A stretch of DNA of 64,000 nucleotides, taken from NCBI RefSeq assembly GCF_988242995.1, contig NZ_OZ547043.1; one strand, given 5' to 3'. Shown in pieces: positions 8,525-59,176 of this stretch (positions are counted from its first letter, which is position 1; every line of letters begins with the position of its first letter). The notes under the pieces are model-generated. The model was not told where the DNA came from. It saw only the letters and a program-made list of their open reading frames with translations, and did no database searches. A program made the position numbers and the translations under genes.

Positions 8525-9477
8525 AAAAATCGTGGCGTAACAACGTTGAGTTTTACTTGATCGGCCTGCTGGTGCTAACTGTTGCAGCCTTCAGCATTAC
8601 TATGCCGGAGATTTTCTGGTCGATAAGTAATTTCCAGTCCGTCGCTTCGCAAATGCCCGTGCTGGGCATTCTGGCGTTGGCTATGGCGGTGACCATGCTT
8701 TGCGGTGGCATTAACTTGTCAATTATTGCCACTGCTAACGCCTGTTCACTGGTAATGGCGTGGGTGGCGACTCAGTATCCACCGGGTATTGCTACGGTTG
8801 TCGCTACGCTGCTGGCGGGCGCTGGCGCGGCGGTGATAATCGGTTTATGTAACGGCGTATTGATTGCTGGTATTCGAGTGTCGCCAATTCTTGCAACGCT
8901 TGGGATGATGACGTTGCTCAAAGGGGTAAATATTCTGGTGACAGGCGGTAGCGCCATTGCCAATTATCCCTCATGGGTGCTGTGGTTGAATCATGCGCAA
9001 TGGTTCGGTATTCCGCTACCGATGTGGTTGTTTGCCGCAGTGGCACTGGGGCTGTGGATATTGCTGGAGAAAACGCCGCTCGGTAAAGCCATTTATCTGA
9101 TTGGTTCTAACGAACGAGCAACACTTTACTCCGGTATTAACACTCGTCGGGTGCTGATATGGGTGTATGTCATTTCCGCCTTACTTTGTGCGGTAGCGGC
9201 ATTTTTGATGATGTCGAAACTCAACTCGGCTAAGGCCTCTTATGGCGAATCGTACTTGCTGGTGTCAATCCTCGCGGCAGTACTCGGCGGGGTTAATCCG
9301 GACGGCGGCAGCGGGCGGATAATTGGTATGGTGCTGGCGCTGTTTCTTCTGCAAATTATTGAAAGCGGCTTCAATATTCTCGGTATAAGCCCCTACCTGA
9401 CGATGGCCTTATGGGGAACGTTGCTGCTCTGTTTCATTCAGGCTCGCGGCATGTTGGGGCTGGATCGGGTGGTTTAA
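8521..9477 (+). CDS. sugar ABC transporter permease (second subunit)
   Basis: ATG 8521 overlaps the upstream stop (ATGA); hydrophobic 318-aa product. Confidence 0.8.
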   Translation: MKKSWRNNVEFYLIGLLVLTVAAFSITMPEIFWSISNFQSVASQMPVLGILALAMAVTMLCGGINLSIIATANACSLVMAWVATQYPPGIATVVATLLAGAGAAVIIGLCNGVLIAGIRVSPILATLGMMTLLKGVNILVTGGSAIANYPSWVLWLNHAQWFGIPLPMWLFAAVALGLWILLEKTPLGKAIYLIGSNERATLYSGINTRRVLIWVYVISALLCAVAAFLMMSKLNSAKASYGESYLLVSILAAVLGGVNPDGGSGRIIGMVLALFLLQIIESGFNILGISPYLTMALWGTLLLCFIQARGMLGLDRVV

Positions 9478-10855: not shown

Positions 10856-11671
10856 ATGATATCATTAAAAGCTCCGCACAATAATTTGATGCCATATACG
10901 CAACAAAGCATACTTAATACAGTAAAAAACAATCAGTTACCAGAGGATATCAAAAGCTCCCTGGTTTCCTGTGTCGATATATTCAAGGTTTTGATTAAAC
11001 AATATTATGATTATCCTTATGATTGTCGTGATGATTTAGTCGATGACGACAAACTCATTCATCTCATGGCTGCCGTACGAGACTGTGAGTGGTCAGACGA
11101 TAACGCACTCACCATAAATGTGCAGTTTAATGATTTCCCAGGATTTTATGACTGGATGGATTACCCTGATCACCCGGTTAAGTTTGTTTTTCGCATACTT
11201 GAAAATCAAAAAGGGACAGTTTGGGTATATGACCAGGATGATGCGTTTCTTGATATTAAAGCAAATGTGCAGGCTGGACGCTTTACCGGGCTTAAGAAAT
11301 TAGTGCAGTTTATCGATTCAGTGCGAACAGATTGCAAATGTATTCTTCTTGAACACCATATGCCTTTGCTGAGACTTTTCCCTAAAGGGAAAGAGTGTAT
11401 GCATGTGGAAAAATGGCTTCGCGAAATGTCGTCTATTCCGGAGACCGACGCACCCATTAAGCAGGCGCTTGCGCATGGATTATTATTACACTTAAAAAAT
11501 ATCTACCCTGTTTTTCCTGAATCACTGGTGATGTTATTGCTCTCTGTTCTGGACGTAAAAACATACAGAGATGATGCGCGATTAAATCAATGGATATCTA
11601 ATAGAGTGCAGGAATTAGGTGACAGATATTATCCTGTAAATAAGCACGTTAAAATCCGCTACACTCTTTAG
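10856..11671 (+). CDS. yahL: protein of unknown function, AT-rich gene
   Basis: 271-aa ORF matching YahL in length and position; low-GC coding sequence. Confidence 0.7.
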   Translation: MISLKAPHNNLMPYTQQSILNTVKNNQLPEDIKSSLVSCVDIFKVLIKQYYDYPYDCRDDLVDDDKLIHLMAAVRDCEWSDDNALTINVQFNDFPGFYDWMDYPDHPVKFVFRILENQKGTVWVYDQDDAFLDIKANVQAGRFTGLKKLVQFIDSVRTDCKCILLEHHMPLLRLFPKGKECMHVEKWLREMSSIPETDAPIKQALAHGLLLHLKNIYPVFPESLVMLLLSVLDVKTYRDDARLNQWISNRVQELGDRYYPVNKHVKIRYTL

Positions 11672-12083
11672 TTCAGAAAGGGTTCCACCTGCGAGTTGTT
11701 ATTCCACCAGAGAGTGAATCGCAAAGCAGGTGATCATTTCATCTGTATATCCGTATGCCAAATGGCATTCCACCGCCTTTTTCGCCGATATTTTGTTGTG
11801 ATCGGCGACACTTCGCTTAAAAAAGCATCAGCAGTGGTTTCGCAGCTATACGGTGTATAAAAAATGATCTCATGCAGATGTTTTGTGAATGTGTGGGTTG
11901 ACATTCATATGAAAAAAATCATAATTCCATCATGTTTGTGTGGGGTCTTTTCTGTATCTTACGCATCGCACTCAAGCCTGACAGAAAATATGCTGTAAGG
12001 CTCATATCAAAAACCGCCATTAGCTCATCAGGAAGAGCAGACGACAACCAGGATTGTTGTATGGTACGGGGTTCGAGGCCTCG

Positions 12084-12329
12084 ATGGCGGTCCAACTTTT
12101 CATAACTCTTCTGAATCAGATCCCCTTATTATCATCCCTGCAAAGTGGAACATTGCCATTGTTTGGCTATTCAGGACGGGTCAGAGCAATGAAAAAAGCC
12201 CACACAGGGGAGAGTGGGCTGAAATGGGAAGCTAAAGACTCAAGTAAACTTATCGGAAATAAGGACCACGCATTACGGGGGCTATCATCGCCGATGGTCG
12301 GGATTCGGCAAATCAGGTTGATTACGTAG
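12084..12329 (+). CDS. yahM: small protein of unknown function
   Basis: 81 aa from ATG 12084; position between yahL and yahN as in K-12. Confidence 0.45.
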   Translation: MAVQLFITLLNQIPLLSSLQSGTLPLFGYSGRVRAMKKAHTGESGLKWEAKDSSKLIGNKDHALRGLSSPMVGIRQIRLIT

Positions 12330-12336
12330 AGAGTAA

Positions 12337-13017
12337 ATTATCTGCTCACCGCTGTGTCACCCCTTCGTAAATCAGGCGTAGCGCGAATACACCAATAATT
12401 GCACCAATAACCCGACTGGCAACGCGTTGCATACGCCCATAAGCACGACGCACAGCGGGCAAAGAAAACGCCTGACTAAGAAAAACGCGCCAGATAATTG
12501 ATGCGAGCACAATCCCCGCTCAGGCCATTAAACGTGCCCATGTTGGTGTTTCGGCATTTAATGTTACTGAGAAAATACTGATAAAAAATAAAACGGTTTG
12601 CGGGTTAGAGAGATCGGTAATTAATCCACGGCGAAAAAAGACATACCAGGGGGCGTTAATCGGTTGTTGTAGTGTGCTCATTTGCGGTGTTGACTGGCGG
12701 CGCATGCTGCACCACGCAAACCATAAGAGATAAGCGCCGCCGACGATTCTGATAAGCGAAAAAATCTCCTCACACTGCGTAATTAGCGTTGCAAGACCAA
12801 ACAAACCCAACCCGGAATAAAATGCATCGCCCAGCGCCACGCCCAGCCCGGTCAGCACCCCTGCGCGTCGACCGGAAGCCAGGCTGGTTTGTACTACCAC
12901 AAAGAGATTGGCTCCCGGATTAAAAAAAGTAATCACGAACAGTCCTACGGTCAGATAAACGGCGTGCAAAGGATCCATAGTGATTTCATCCATAAATAAG
13001 TGAAGTAACTTCATCAT
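12337..13017 (-). pseudogene. yahN: LysE/RhtB-family amino-acid exporter interrupted by an in-frame TGA
   Basis: ORF stops after 165 aa at TGA (12520..12522); the same frame continues past the stop with LysE-like hydrophobic sequence (AGIVLASIIWRVF...RLIYEG); LysE-family proteins are usually about 200-225 aa. Confidence 0.55.
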
Positions 13018-13163
13018 ATTTCTACCAAAAATAATCGGGTGCGAGAGAGATCACAAAGTGTCTTATTTCCGGTTACTGGCGTTTATGCCCTGACTGAACT
13101 AATTATTAATCAACCCAATAATGTGGGTGGGTGATAGTGTGATAACAACTCTGGAGCCGTAAT

Positions 13164-13439
13164 ATGAAAATAATCTCTAAAATGTTAGTCGGTGCGTTAG
13201 CGTTTGCCGTTACCAATGTCTATGCCGCAGAATTAATGACCAAAGCGGAATTTGAAAAGGTTGAATCGCAATATGAAAAAATAGGTGATATTTCAACCAG
13301 TAATGAAATGTCGACTGCAGATGCAAAAGAAGATTTAATCAAAAAAGCCGATGAAAAAGGGGCTGATGTGTTGGTACTGACCTCCGGTCAAACTGACAAT
13401 AAGATCCACGGCACGGCAAATATTTATAAGAAGAAGTAA
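13164..13439 (+). CDS. yahO: periplasmic DUF1471 (YhcN-family) protein
   Basis: 91 aa with signal peptide; recognised YahO sequence. Confidence 0.85.
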
Positions 13440-13506
13440 TTCTGAATCCTATGTAAACATCCCCGATGCGTAAGTTTATCGGTGATCATCATCTATTGAA
13501 ATTTAT

Positions 13507-13537
13507 GCCGGATAAAGCGTTCGCGCTGCATTCGGCA
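13507..13537. repeat. REP element
   Basis: GCCGGATAAAGCGTTCGCGCTGCATTCGGC palindromic unit between yahO and prpR. Confidence 0.7.
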
Positions 13538-13539
13538 GT

Positions 13540-15126
13540 TCAGTTTTTCAGCCGCCGCCAGAACGTCGTCCGGCTTATGCCTAAATAATTCGCCGCTGCT
13601 GTTTTATCGCCTTTAAATTTCTCCAGTGCCTGTTGTGGTGTCAGTAAGCGTGGAGCGGGAATTTTCGCCGACTCGCGCGCCAGTTCCGGCAGTAGCAGCT
13701 GCAAAAATTGCGGCGTTAAATCCGGCGTCGGTTCCACACTTAAAAACAGCGCCAGTCGCTCCATCATATTGCGCAGTTCACGAATATTGCCCGGCCAGTC
13801 GTAGTGCACCAGCACGGTTTCGCTTGCCTGTAACCCCTGGCGTAATGCGGCAGAAAACGGGGCGGAGAGCGCCGCCAGAGACACTTTCAAAAAGCTTTCC
13901 GCCAGCGGCAGAATATCCGCCACCCGCTCGCGCAGTGGTGGCAATTGCAGACGCAAAATACTCAGCCGATAAAACAGATCACGGCGAAAACGTCCTTGCT
14001 GCATATCTTCTTCCAGATTGCAGTGAGTGGCGCTAATGACCCGCACATCTAACGGAACAGGCTGATGCCCGCCGACGCGGGTGACCTCTTTTTCTTCCAG
14101 CACCCGTAACAGGCGAGTCTGCAAAGGTAGCGGCATTTCGCCAATCTCATCCAGAAACAGCGTACCGCCGTGGGCAATTTCGAACAGCCCGGCGCGACCT
14201 CCACGTCGCGAGCCGGTGAACGCCCCTTCCTCATAGCCAAACAGCTCTGCTTCCAGCAGCGATTCGGCAATCGCCCCGCAGTTGACGGCAACAAACGGAT
14301 GCGACTTTTTGCCCTGTCGCGCATCGTGGCGGGCAAAATATTCCCGATGAATCGCCTGGGCCGCCAGCTCTTTGCCCGTCCCCGTTTCCCCTTCAATCAA
14401 CACCGCTGCACTGGAGCGGGCATACAGCAAAATAGTCTGCCGTACCTGTTCCATCTGTGGTGATTGACCGAGCATATCGCCCAGCACGTAACGAGTACGC
14501 AGGGCGTTGCGGGTGGCATCGTGAGTGTTATGGCGTAACGACATGCGCGTCATATCCAGCGCATCGCTGAATGCCTGGCGCACGGTGGCGGCGGAATAGA
14601 TAAAAATTCCGGTCATTCCGGCTTCTTCTGCCAAATCGGTAATCAGCCCCGCGCCGACCACCGCTTCGGTGCCGTTAGCTTTCAGCTCGTTAATCTGCCC
14701 GCGCGCGTCTTCTTCGGTAATGTAGCTACGTTGGTCGAGGCGCAAATTAAAGGTTTTTTGAAACGCCACCAGCGCTGGAATGGTTTCCTGATAAGTGACA
14801 ACGCCGATAGAAGAGGTGAGTTTTCCGGCTTTTGCCAGTGCCTGTAACACATCGTAGCCGCTCGGTTTAATCAAAATAACTGGCACTGACAGGCGGCTTT
14901 TCAGGTACGCGCCGTTAGAGCCAGCAGCGATGATGGCGTCACAGCGTTCGCTTGCCAGTTTCTTGCGGATGTAGGTCACCGCTTTTTCAAAGCCAAGCTG
15001 GATAGGGGTAATGTTCGCCAGATGATCAAACTCGAGGCTGATATCGCGAAACAGCTCGAACAGGCGCGTCACCGATACCGTCCAGATAACCGGTTTGTCG
15101 TCATTCAGCCGTGGTGGATGTGCCAT
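13540..15126 (-). CDS. prpR: sigma-54-dependent propionate catabolism activator
   Basis: 528 aa from MAHPP...; AAA+ Walker A GETGTGKE and GAFTGS sigma-54 contact motif; C-terminal HTH. Confidence 0.9.
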
Positions 15127-15364: not shown

Positions 15365-16255
15365 ATGTCTCTACACTCTCCAGGTAAAGCGTTTCGCGCT
15401 GCACTGTCTAAAGAAAATCCATTGCAGATTGTCGGCACCATCAACGCTAACCATGCGCTGCTGGCGCAGCGTGCCGGATATCAGGCAATTTATCTCTCCG
15501 GCGGTGGCGTGGCGGCAGGGTCGCTGGGGCTGCCCGATCTCGGTATTTCTACTCTTGATGACGTGCTGACAGATATTCGCCGTATCACCGACGTTTGTTC
15601 GCTGCCGCTGCTGGTGGATGCGGATATCGGTTTTGGTTCTTCTGCTTTTAACGTGGCGCGCACCGTGAAATCGATGATTAAAGCCGGTGCGGCAGGATTG
15701 CATATTGAAGATCAGGTTGGTGCGAAACGCTGCGGTCATCGTCCGAATAAAGCGATCGTCTCGAAAGAGGAGATGGTGGATCGGATCCGCGCGGCGGTGG
15801 ATGCGAAAACCGATCCTGATTTTGTGATCATGGCGCGCACCGATGCGCTGGCGGTTGAAGGGCTGGACGCCGCGATCGAGCGTGCGCAGGCCTACGTTGA
15901 AGCGGGTGCCGAGATGTTGTTCCCGGAGGCGATTACCGAACTCGCCATGTACCGCCAGTTTGCCGATGCGGTGCAGGTGCCGATCCTCGCCAACATCACC
16001 GAATTTGGCGCAACACCGCTGTTTACCACCGACGAATTACGCAGCGCCCATGTTGCAATGGCGCTGTACCCGCTTTCAGCGTTTCGCGCCATGAACCGCG
16101 CCGCCGAACATGTCTACAACGTCCTGCGTCAGGAAGGCACGCAGAAAAGCGTCATCGACACCATGCAAACCCGCAACGAGCTGTACGAAAGCATCAATTA
16201 CTACCAGTACGAAGAGAAGCTCGACGACCTGTTTGCCCGTAGCCAGGTGAAATAA
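15365..16255 (+). CDS. prpB: 2-methylisocitrate lyase
   Basis: 296 aa, recognised PrpB sequence. Confidence 0.95.
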
Positions 16256-16299
16256 AACACAACGAAAAATATCTCGACCCTACAAATGACGAGGACAAT

Positions 16300-17469
16300 A
16301 TGAGCGACACAACGATCCTGCAAAACAGTACCCATGTCATTAAACCGAAAAAATCGGTGGCACTTTCTGGCGTTCCGGCGGGCAATACGGCGCTCTGCAC
16401 CGTGGGTAAAAGTGGCAATGATTTGCATTACCGAGGCTACGACATTCTTGATCTGGCGGAACATTGCGAATTTGAAGAAGTGGCGCATCTGCTGATCCAC
16501 GGCAAACTGCCGACCCGTGACGAACTCGCCGCCTACAAAACGAAACTGAAAGCCCTGCGCGGTTTACCGGCTAACGTGCGTACCGTGCTGGAAGCCTTAC
16601 CGGCGGCGTCACACCCGATGGATGTTATGCGCACCGGCGTTTCCGCGCTCGGCTGCACGCTGCCAGAAAAAGAGGGGCATACCGTCTCTGGCGCGCGGGA
16701 TATTGCCGACAAACTGCTGGCGTCACTTAGCTCGATTCTTCTCTACTGGTATCACTACAGCCACAACGGCGAACGCATTCAGCCGGAAACCGATGACGAC
16801 TCCATCGGCGGTCACTTCCTGCATCTGCTGCATGGCGAAAAGCCGTCGCAAAGCTGGGAAAAGGCGATGCATATTTCGCTGGTGCTGTACGCCGAACACG
16901 AGTTTAACGCCTCCACCTTTACCAGCCGGGTGATTGCGGGCACCGGCTCTGATATGTATTCCGCGATTATTGGCGCGATTGGTGCACTGCGCGGGCCGAA
17001 GCACGGCGGGGCGAATGAAGTGTCGCTGGAGATCCAGCAACGCTACGAAACGCCGGACGAAGCCGAAGCCGATATCCGCAAGCGGGTGGAAAACAAAGAA
17101 GTGGTCATTGGTTTTGGTCATCCGGTTTATACCATCGCCGACCCGCGTCATCAGGTGATCAAACGCGTGGCGAAGCAGCTCTCGCAGGAAGGCGGTTCGC
17201 TGAAGATGTATAACATCGCCGATCGCCTGGAAACAGTGATGTGGGAGAGCAAAAAGATGTTCCCCAATCTCGACTGGTTCTCCGCTGTTTCCTACAACAT
17301 GATGGGCGTTCCCACCGAGATGTTCACCCCACTGTTTGTTATCGCCCGCGTCACCGGCTGGGCGGCGCACATTATCGAACAACGTCAGGACAACAAAATT
17401 ATCCGTCCTTCCGCCAATTATGTTGGACCGGAAGACCGCCAGTTTGTCGCGCTGGATAAGCGCCAGTAA
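16300..17469 (+). CDS. prpC: 2-methylcitrate synthase
   Basis: 389 aa, citrate synthase family. Confidence 0.95.
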
Positions 17470-25858: not shown

Positions 25859-26181
25859 CAGCCATGCGCAACCATCAAAAGACGTTCACGATGCTGCTGG
25901 TTCTGGTGCTGATTGGTCTTAATATGCGACCACTGCTCACCTCCGTCGGGCCACTGCTACCGCAATTGCGCCAGGCAAGCGGAATGAGCTTTAGCGTGGC
26001 TGCCCTGTTGACCGCTCTGCCGGTGGTTACCATGGGCGGGCTGGCGCTGGCCGGAAGCTGGCTTCATCAGCATGTCAGCGAACGTCGCAGCGTCGCCATC
26101 AGTTTGTTACTGATTGCCGTCGGTGCATTGATGCGTGAGCTTTACCCCCAAAGTGCGCTGCTGCTTAGCAGCGCACTGCTT

Positions 26182-26893
26182 GTGCACAGAAAACCCCCAG
26201 CTAGGCTGGGGGTTCCGGAAAGCTTTCAGCTTTGAGCCAGTTATTAAAACCCCTTTTGATTTGTTAAAACACCTTGCGGTCTGGCAACTGCAAGTGTCAA
26301 ACAAGAAATCAAAAGGGGGTCCCAATGGGGAACGAAAAGAGCTTAGCGCACACCCGATGGAACTGTAAATATCACATAGTTTTTGCGCCAAAATACCGAA
26401 GACAGGTGTTCTACAGAGAGAAGCGTAGAGCAATAGGCAGTATTTTGAGAAAGCTGTGTGAGTGGAAAAGCGTACGGATTCTGGAAGCTGAATGCTGTGC
26501 AGATCATATCCATATGCTTGTGGAGATCCCGCCCAAAATGAGCGTATCCGGGTTTATGGGATATCTGAAAGGGAAAAGCAGTCTGATGCTTTACGAGCAG
26601 TTTGGTGATTTGAAATTCAAATACAGGAACAGGGAGTTCTGGTGCAGAGGGTACTACGTCGATACAGTGGGTAAGAACACGGCGAAGATACAGGATTACA
26701 TAAAGCACCAGCTTGAAGAGGATAAAATGGGAGAGCAGTTATCGATTCCCTATCCGGGCAGCCCGTTTACGGGCCGTAAGTAACGAAGTTGGATGCAAAT
26801 GTCAGATCGTGTGCGCCTGTTAGGGCGCGGCTGGTAAGAGAGCCTTATAGGCGCATTTGAAAAACCTCCGGCTATGCCGGAGGATATTTATTT
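26182..26893 (+). mobile_element. IS200 (IS200/IS605 family) insertion, about 712 bp
   Basis: Interrupts the cynX reading frame; 5' terminal hairpin CCCCCAGC-TAG-GCTGGGGG (26194..26212); Y1 transposase gene; 3' hairpin CCTCCGGC-TAT-GCCGGAGG (26865..26883) followed by a T-rich tract; boundaries accurate to a few bp. Confidence 0.85.
26325..26783 (+). CDS. tnpA: IS200 TnpA (HUH / Y1 transposase)
   Basis: 152 aa from MGNEKSLAHTRWNCKYHIVFAPKYRR...; HUH motif (DHIHMLVEI) and catalytic Tyr region (RGYYVDTVG). Confidence 0.9.
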   Translation: MGNEKSLAHTRWNCKYHIVFAPKYRRQVFYREKRRAIGSILRKLCEWKSVRILEAECCADHIHMLVEIPPKMSVSGFMGYLKGKSSLMLYEQFGDLKFKYRNREFWCRGYYVDTVGKNTAKIQDYIKHQLEEDKMGEQLSIPYPGSPFTGRK

Positions 26894-27796
26894 GGTGGAG
26901 TGGGGATCGGCATCATTCAGGCAGTGATGCCTTCGGTAATTAAGCGGCGGTTTCAGCACCGTACGCCACTGGTGATGGGGCTGTGGTCCGCGGCTCTGAT
27001 GGGCGGCGGTGGACTTGGTGCCGCCATTACGCCCTGGTTAGTTCAACATAGCGAAACCTGGTATCAAACACTCGCCTGGTGGGCGCTGCCTGCCGTTGTT
27101 GCGCTCTTTGCCTGGTGGTGGCAAAGCGCCCGCGAGGTCGCCTCTTCTCACAAGACAACAACCACTCCGGTTCGCGTGGTATTTACTCCCCGCGCGTGGA
27201 CGCTGGGTGTTTACTTCGGTCTGATTAACGGTGGTTACGCCAGCCTGATTGCCTGGTTACCCGCTTTCTATATTGAGATTGGTGCCAGCGCGCAGTACAG
27301 CGGTTCCTTGCTGGCATTGATGACGCTTGGGCAAGCAGCAGGGGCATTGCTGATGCCTGCTATGGCTCGCCATCAGGATCGGCGCAAACTTTTGATGCTG
27401 GCGCTGGCGTTACAACTGGTGGGGTTCTGCGGCTTTATCTGGCTGCCGCTGCAATTGCCGGTATTGTGGGCAATGGTGTGTGGGTTAGGTCTGGGCGGCG
27501 CATTTCCGCTCTGTTTGCTGCTGGCGCTCGATCACTCTGCGCAACCCGCTATTGCTGGCAAACTGGTGGCGTTTATGCAGGGGATCGGTTTTATCATCGC
27601 CGGGCTTGCCCCGTGGTTTTCTGGTGTGCTGCGTAGTATCAGTGGCAATTACTTGATGGACTGGGCGTTTCATGCGCTGTGCGTCGTTGGGCTGATGATC
27701 ATAACCCTGCGTTTTGCACCAGCACGTTTTCCGCAGCTGTGGGTCAAAGAGGCATGATGCGACGCTTGTTTCGCCAGATAATGGAAGAGTGAATTA

Positions 27797-43509: not shown

Positions 43510-43530
43510 ACATAGATAAGTCGTGCGCAG

Positions 43531-44740
<1,210 letters not shown>

Positions 44741-44810
44741 AAATCGCGGAAGGGATGAAACAACAGCGCCTGACGGCGCTGTGTCTGGCATGCCTGCAAT
44801 CCGGGAGACT

Positions 44811-44848
<38 letters not shown>

Positions 44849-44864
44849 GGCCTGCGGGCGAAAT

Positions 44865-44898
44865 GTAGGCGGATAAGGCGTTCACGCCGCATCCGGCA
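44865..44898. repeat. REP element
   Basis: GTAGGCGGATAAGGCGTTCACGCCGCATCCGGCA. Confidence 0.7.
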
Positions 44899-44912
44899 GT
44901 CGTGCACTATTA

Positions 44913-55692: not shown

Positions 55693-56215
55693 GGTCTGCC
55701 TGATGTTTGTGGAATCGAGGGGCATAGTATACCTGAAGCAGGGTAGGGATGTTTTACGAAAGTTGTCGCGATGTTGACAAGAAGAGAATGGAAGAGAGGC
55801 CAGGACATCTTTGTAATAGAAATAGCAATAATTTCATATTCACTGAAAATATTTTTAATCTTTATTTATAGTTATTGGTTATTATTTTTTGGAGTTTGGT
55901 TGCGCTGCTACAAATTGAATAATTAAAACTTTGTTGTATATTCATAGGATATTTATCTGGTTTGTGTTTGTGATATTTATGATGCATATGTTTCAAAAAT
56001 AACATTATCTGCAACATATTGAAATATGGTGTTTTTATCAATTCGATGCGTGTTTTTCTCCATAAATTACATATGTCCACATTCGGACTTAGGGGAAAGA
56101 ATAATTGAACCATTCCTCTATAACGCCGCATAATCGTCAACGCGAAACATAATATGTTTTCTATGCATTGATAATTGATGGATCAACTTATTACGTCCCT
56201 GAGGAGGGATGACAA

Positions 56216-59176
<2,961 letters not shown>

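Follow-up and report, generated by a model that had tools for sequence, protein, structure and literature searches.

A premature TGA at Trp166 of yahN: a probable loss-of-function allele of Escherichia coli on a recombinant haplotype

Results and discussion

The yahN gene of the window (the whole 64,000-nucleotide stretch of DNA analyzed here, from contig NZ_OZ547043.1) is, at a probability of roughly 0.87, a genuine nonsense loss-of-function allele that is inherited both vertically and by recombination, i.e., an ordinary pseudogene. The pseudogene extends over positions 12346-13017 on the minus strand, where a frame of the same length as that of K-12 (223 codons plus TAA) is recognized by its alignment to b0328, by its matches to Pfam and TIGR00949 and by synteny.

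Reading frame and identity of yahN

The yahN frame begins with an ATG at 13017 on the minus strand and runs for 165 sense codons to a TGA read from 12522 to 12520 (the plus-strand triplet tca at 12520-12522) in the context GCC UGA GCG, as the initial annotation of this LysE-family frame had it. Beyond the TGA the frame remains open for 57 more sense codons, previously put at about 60, and ends with a TAA at 12348-12346. The premature stop divides the gene into a 5' fragment ORF of 165 codons (12520-13017, minus strand), which on the evidence of the ORF list, the structural model and the Pfam coverage codes for transmembrane (TM) helices TM1-TM4 plus the opening residues of TM5, and an in-frame 3' remnant of 57 codons (12349-12519, minus strand), which is equivalent to K-12 residues 167-223 and is predicted by the model to code for the remainder of TM5 (about 12469-12519) together with the whole of TM6 (about 12355-12459). 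The ORF list also contains a GTG-initiated ORF of 54 codons (12346-12510, minus strand), the first codon of which lies three codons past the TGA.

The product of yahN belongs to the LysE/RhtB family of amino acid exporters, with profile matches above the curated cut-offs: when codon 166 is restored, YahN scores 202.4 bits against PF01810 (Pfam LysE; cut-off 25.6 bits) over profile positions 2-193, and 238.2 bits against TIGR00949 (NCBIfam '2A76'; cut-off 183.95 bits). The gene order yahL-yahM-yahN-yahO-prpR is common to the window, K-12, 118UI, MEI003 and KE55, and the position of the gene between yahM and yahO/prpR together with its near-identity identifies it as the ortholog of b0328. The profile scores and the conserved synteny agree with the assignment of the frame to yahN and the LysE family that had been made from the sequence at first reading. 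Among the full-length-aligned genes (of approximately 50 mapped to the window from MEI003), yahN is the only one that contains an internal stop. A scan of the yahN locus for promoters and terminators found nothing beyond the expectation from shuffled sequences, and the literature searched for amino acid efflux by YahN, or for yahN in ST69, names the gene by annotation only.

Origin of the stop codon

The yahN of the window aligns without gaps to the yahN of K-12 MG1655 (b0328; 672 nt, 223 codons), at the same locus, with the same synteny and length, and with nine nucleotide differences (663 of 672 nt identical). The only disruptive difference of the nine is in codon 166, which is TGG (Trp166) in K-12 and TGA in the window; the window also differs from K-12 by S121N, Q3K and V5L, and the translation of the 57 codons past the stop is exactly the C-terminus of K-12 YahN. 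The changed base is the third position of the codon, at 12520, where the plus strand has T and K-12 has C. The alignment shows exactly the TGG-to-TGA change that the initial annotation had proposed, although the base that it gave for checking was the neighboring one, 12521. It had also allowed that K-12 might share the stop and have a shorter annotated protein; the TGG in K-12 disposes of that suggestion. The in-frame stop of the window stands where intact orthologs have a sense codon, namely the TGG found in K-12, MEI003, KE55 and 4,044 genomes of the collection described below. By this comparison, a single G-to-A transition on the coding strand (C to T on the plus strand at 12520) is shown to have made the TGG of Trp166 an opal TGA.

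The substitutions Q3K and V5L were considered as signs of decay following inactivation and rejected: the same residues are present in intact alleles, e.g., WP_000976967.1 of MEI003 and KE55, and both precede the codon at which translation of the gene probably begins. None of 111 full-length homologs aligns with residues 1-13 of YahN, and M14 is nearly invariant (at least 90% conserved among the aligned homologs), so that the homolog alignment points to the ATG of codon 14 (12976-12978, minus strand) as the probable start, in which case the full-length protein would have 210 amino acids, the premature stop would be codon 153, and Q3K and V5L would probably be outside the actual protein. Gene callers often choose M14, resulting in products of 152 or 210 amino acids. 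The annotated 223-codon yahN probably begins 13 codons too early (window 12976-13017), and the structural model has a short helix of lower confidence at residues 2-10.

Predicted effect on the protein

The AlphaFold2 model of restored YahN (pLDDT 91, pTM 0.83) contains six TM helices, at residues 16-30/36-48, 50-81, 83-106, 124-136/139-152, 159-183 (TM5) and 187-221 (TM6). In this model, the stop at codon 166 falls within the first turns of TM5 and leaves little of TM5 and nothing of TM6, and the coverage of the Pfam profile decreases from positions 2-193 for the restored protein to positions 2-138 of 193 for the truncated one. The six-helix core is not encoded in one uninterrupted frame in the window. 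The model and the drop in Pfam coverage are in keeping with the earlier expectation of a product without its last helices, and support a protein that lacks TM5 and TM6.

Homologs of YahN were sought among 1.84 billion representative proteins, which yielded 10,599 relatives; 111 full-length homologs were used for the alignment, on which the AlphaFold2 model was built. The column of Trp166 is variable in the family, being occupied by V, G, L, A, W or I; Trp176, which is in the lost part, is near-invariant and is kept in 104 of 112 homologs. The tryptic peptide that spans codon 166 in full-length YahN consists of residues 163-177, LMAWAGIVLASIIWR. A search for a solved structure of the family gave no match in PDB by sequence (E ≤ 1) or by Foldseek (E ≤ 0.001). 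With the loss of TM5, TM6 and Trp176, the truncated four-helix product is expected to be non-functional and is probably degraded.

Under the preferred reading of yahN as a loss-of-function allele, release factor 2 would terminate translation at codon 166 to yield a product of 165 residues, or 152 residues if translation starts at M14, which would retain TM1-TM4 but would be deprived of two of the three helices in the second half of the six-helix LysE fold. Loss of yahN is probably tolerated because the gene is dispensable and has paralogs, namely rhtB, rhtC, leuE, argO and eamB. Dispensability is supported by viable K-12 recovered with a Tn5 insertion in yahN (PMC11014345) and by the independently inactivated yahN of IMT5155, described below.

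Distribution of the allele in E. coli

The distribution of the allele was determined with a 31-mer centered on the variant, such that only T-carrying sequences can seed a match. The TGA 31-mer is present in 112 of 5,426 complete E. coli genomes (approximately 2%), always in the chromosome and in a single copy, and the TGG 31-mer is present in 4,044 of the same 5,426 genomes, the remainder of which differ elsewhere in the 31-mer. The TGA allele is also found in many draft and metagenome assemblies. In every carrier inspected, PGAP labels yahN a 'LysE family transporter' pseudogene with an 'internal stop'. To cover diverse carriers, six were picked from cattle (New Zealand and USA), human (Germany and Russia), swine (Korea) and chicken (South Africa), which represent four types of host on four continents. 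Over 10 kb around yahN, these six have no base substitutions and are identical except in one assembly, where four indel columns of a single base each resemble assembly noise. Because six such diverse carriers are identical over 10 kb, the 112 carrier genomes are, on this comparison, one recently expanded and globally spread clone. One carrier is named 'O15:H18 strain ST69', and this strain name is the whole of the tie between the clone and ST69.

About 899 contigs in public assemblies carry a called ORF identical to the 54-amino-acid ORF downstream of the stop. Ten of these sites were sampled, all of them directly downstream of a broken yahN: eight have the whole of yahN and the TGA of the window, the ninth is on a cut contig and also has the TGA, and the tenth is the avian pathogenic strain IMT5155, which is described below. 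In one TGA-carrying yahN (Logan contig ERR12723834_73947), there is in addition an in-frame insertion of 3 nt together with two substitutions at gene nt ~309-324, which could reflect either continuing decay or an artifact of assembly. The allele is already known, in that RefSeq annotates the same pseudogene in over a hundred genomes.

The frame downstream of the TGA would still be clean because the mutation is recent. The clean frame is not evidence that it is used, because the carriers have no base substitutions over 10 kb; it is also what continued use by way of readthrough predicts, and it has no power to discriminate between the two.

Mosaic haplotype of the window

The window and the TGA clone share a mismatch-free haplotype block of 1,814 bp (11141-12954) that contains the 3' end of yahL, yahM and most of yahN: there are mismatches to 118UI at 11140 and 12955 and none between them. 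Compared to the yahN pseudogene that RefSeq/PGAP annotates in the clone (strains 'ST69', 118UI, M12, CE0007a and others), the window has the same nonsense mutation within this identical block, but it differs at 12955, 13005 and 13011, all within the first 63 nt of yahN, and both of its flanks are approximately 1.5% divergent. The window also matches MEI003, which has an intact yahN, over 12848-14769 with one mismatch. From the match to 118UI over 11141-12954 and the match to MEI003 over 12848-14769, it follows that a recombination crossover is located in the interval 12848-12954, in the 5' part of yahN; on the side toward 13017 and yahO, the window follows intact-allele genomes like MEI003, and on the side toward 12346 it follows the TGA clone. 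On these matches, the window belongs to a lineage other than the TGA clone, and its yahN allele is a recombinant mosaic. The mutation would have arisen on one haplotype, now the marker of a globally spread clone, and the lineage of the window would hold the same 1.8-kb block either by recombination or by shared ancestry.

No complete genome has more than 99.7% identity to the yahN region of the window over 961 bp, the first 25 kb of the window are at most 98.9% identical to any complete E. coli genome of the collection, and a set of approximately 15 billion proteins does not contain the exact 165-amino-acid product. The eight genomes that encode exactly the PrpR of the window all have TGG and an intact yahN. 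The one new detail is that the window carries the known TGA allele as a recombinant mosaic, which is a minor example of the spread of loss-of-function alleles through homologous recombination.

The region around yahN is strongly mosaic, with the best-matching genome changing every 1-3 kb. Between prpB and prpC, the TGA clone has approximately 490 extra bases (positions 8751-9284 of the clone sequences L016-L021) that are annotated as a hypothetical protein of 179 amino acids on the opposite strand; this segment is missing from the window (16255-16300) and from MEI003.

Alternative explanations

A second inactivation of yahN is found in the avian pathogenic E. coli strain IMT5155 (NZ_CP005930.1), where the same Trp166 codon has been changed from TGG to TAG and a 1-nt deletion is present in a run of six T near gene nt 430 (equivalent to approximately 12588 in the window); PGAP flags this gene as a pseudogene, too ('frameshifted; internal stop'). 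The TAG 31-mer is present in four of the 5,426 complete genomes (IMT5155 and three others), all from poultry or poultry meat. The inactivation in IMT5155 is an independent event, because the TAG allele, with its frameshift, sits on a different haplotype from that of the window. The occurrence of both TGA and TAG at codon 166 was considered as a possible hotspot and rejected: there are 24 transition routes to a stop in yahN, two of which are at codon 166, so the chance expectation of approximately 8% is unremarkable.

The explanation that survives best after the preferred one is adaptive loss, whereby inactivation of yahN is beneficial in extra-intestinal or poultry-associated lineages, e.g., by stopping the leakage of amino acids, and has been selected rather than having drifted. 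The separate origins of the two inactivations (TGA in 112 genomes, TAG plus frameshift in four), the passage of the TGA block across lineage boundaries and the global success of the main carrier clone are consistent with selection, but approximately 2% of genomes within one clone is what hitch-hiking would be expected to produce, the recurrence at the same codon is no more than two of 24 transition routes allow, yahN is intact in more than 4,000 genomes, and the literature searched contains no phenotype data for yahN. Adaptive loss is judged to be unlikely.

The TGA could also make yahN a pseudo-pseudogene, in which tRNA-Trp reads UGA at a low or stress-dependent level to produce exactly the wild-type YahN, so that the gene is down-tuned or heterogeneously expressed rather than dead. 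UGA is the leakiest stop codon of E. coli and is decoded mostly or almost always as Trp (PMC11126739), and in a reporter library in K-12, readthrough was raised by G at position +4 and by G-rich, T-poor upstream sequence, and further by cold or starvation (PMC11126739). The local context UGGCC-UGA-G combines the G at +4 with an upstream pentamer that contains G and is poor in T, and the frame past the stop is intact, so basal decoding of UGA by tRNA-Trp is a biochemically plausible way in which wild-type YahN would be restored. Any full-length YahN would be owed solely to such unprogrammed, near-cognate decoding, which at its basal rate should give a few molecules. In Salmonella, pseudogenes with in-frame stops give low levels of protein (PMC9122581). 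The yahN allele resembles such bacterial pseudo-pseudogenes (Feng et al. 2022, PMC9122581; Belinky et al. 2021, PMC7918605) in that a single in-frame stop interrupts a gene that is otherwise intact and presumably transcribed, and decoding of its UGA as Trp would give the ancestral protein; it differs in being known from sequence alone and in that the stops read through in the Salmonella pseudogenes are mostly UAG (PMC9122581), whereas that of yahN is UGA. Other aspects of the context and of the distribution weigh against readthrough. The RF2 of K-12 is unusually weak and the RF2-B type terminates at UGA better (PMC5373646), and prfB lies outside the window; older work, as far as it is cited in PMC9122581, favors A rather than G at +4. 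A scan with Rfam (E ≤ 1) found no SECIS or other match at the stop, the sole match being a sub-threshold and unrelated one at 12190-12240 (20 bits compared to a gathering score of 50; E = 0.36). The predicted fold of an 80-nt segment, made up of the TGA with the 9 nt before it and the 68 nt after it, has a minimum free energy of -20.2 compared to a mean of -20.6 for shuffled sequences (z = 0.15), and is no better than the shuffles, so there is no stimulatory RNA structure to favor readthrough. The stop is not conserved across divergent lineages, as that of a programmed recoding site would be, but is limited to one clone (112 of 5,426 genomes) and the mosaic of the window; the carriers have no base substitutions and give no sign of selection on the frame, and the second lineage, that of IMT5155, has let yahN decay further. 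Nothing in the surrounding sequence marks readthrough at the TGA of yahN as programmed or selected, and maintenance of a functional gene by readthrough is quite improbable. A more elaborate version, in which Trp166 to UGA is a leaky switch that provides low-level amino acid export raised by stress or cold, or alternatively in which the loss has been selected in extra-intestinal lineages, is a long shot.

A split gene, in which translation restarts at the GTG 9 nt past the UGA (12510) and the 54-amino-acid piece with TM5 and TM6 joins the 165-amino-acid piece to form a two-piece transporter, is very improbable. An in-frame GTG three codons past the stop with GGGG before it, and the calling of the 54-amino-acid ORF on hundreds of contigs, are what such a gene would look like, but the ORF begins at residue 170, inside TM5 (159-183), which leaves neither piece with a complete TM5; the Shine-Dalgarno-like GGGG is only 3 nt from the GTG and is a poor match, reinitiation at 12510 is unlikely, the 54-amino-acid gene calls are mechanical, and no precedent was found in the LysE/RhtB family.

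The bare in-frame TGA would in itself suit a sequencing or assembly error at 12520 or recoding to selenocysteine, but both are scarcely credible: an error, which the initial annotation had named as a possible undoing of its reading, is excluded because the same base occurs in 112 complete assemblies and many drafts, with which the window is identical over 1.8 kb, and selenocysteine or a stimulatory RNA element is ruled out by the Rfam scan and the comparison to shuffled folds, with no SECIS match or hairpin downstream of a codon that was ancestrally Trp in a membrane helix.

Annotation and other features of the window

The reading of yahN as a loss-of-function allele implies that the gene should be annotated as a pseudogene and not as two small 'LysE' genes of 165 and 54 amino acids, the form in which mechanical gene callers present it; beyond annotation, the importance of the allele is small. 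It is a convenient single-base marker for one widespread E. coli clone, and, since UGA is mostly misread as Trp, a clean natural test case for readthrough of a premature stop in the chromosome of a non-K-12 background.

Elsewhere in the window, cynX, the cyanate transporter gene (25864-27757), is a second broken gene, because it is interrupted by an insertion of approximately 710 bp (at about 26183-26893) that encodes an IS200-like Y1 transposase of 152 amino acids (26325-26783; PF01797, 131 bits). An insertion of approximately 1.3 kb between yaiL and fghA (about 43510-44912), which is missing from MEI003, carries a 326-amino-acid transposase of the IS110 family (43760-44740; PF01548 and PF02371). 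Of the autotransporter gene ehaB, only the 3' 1,842 nt of the MEI003 gene align in one piece (57323-59164), and the 5' part (about 56150-57322) is divergent or rearranged compared to MEI003.
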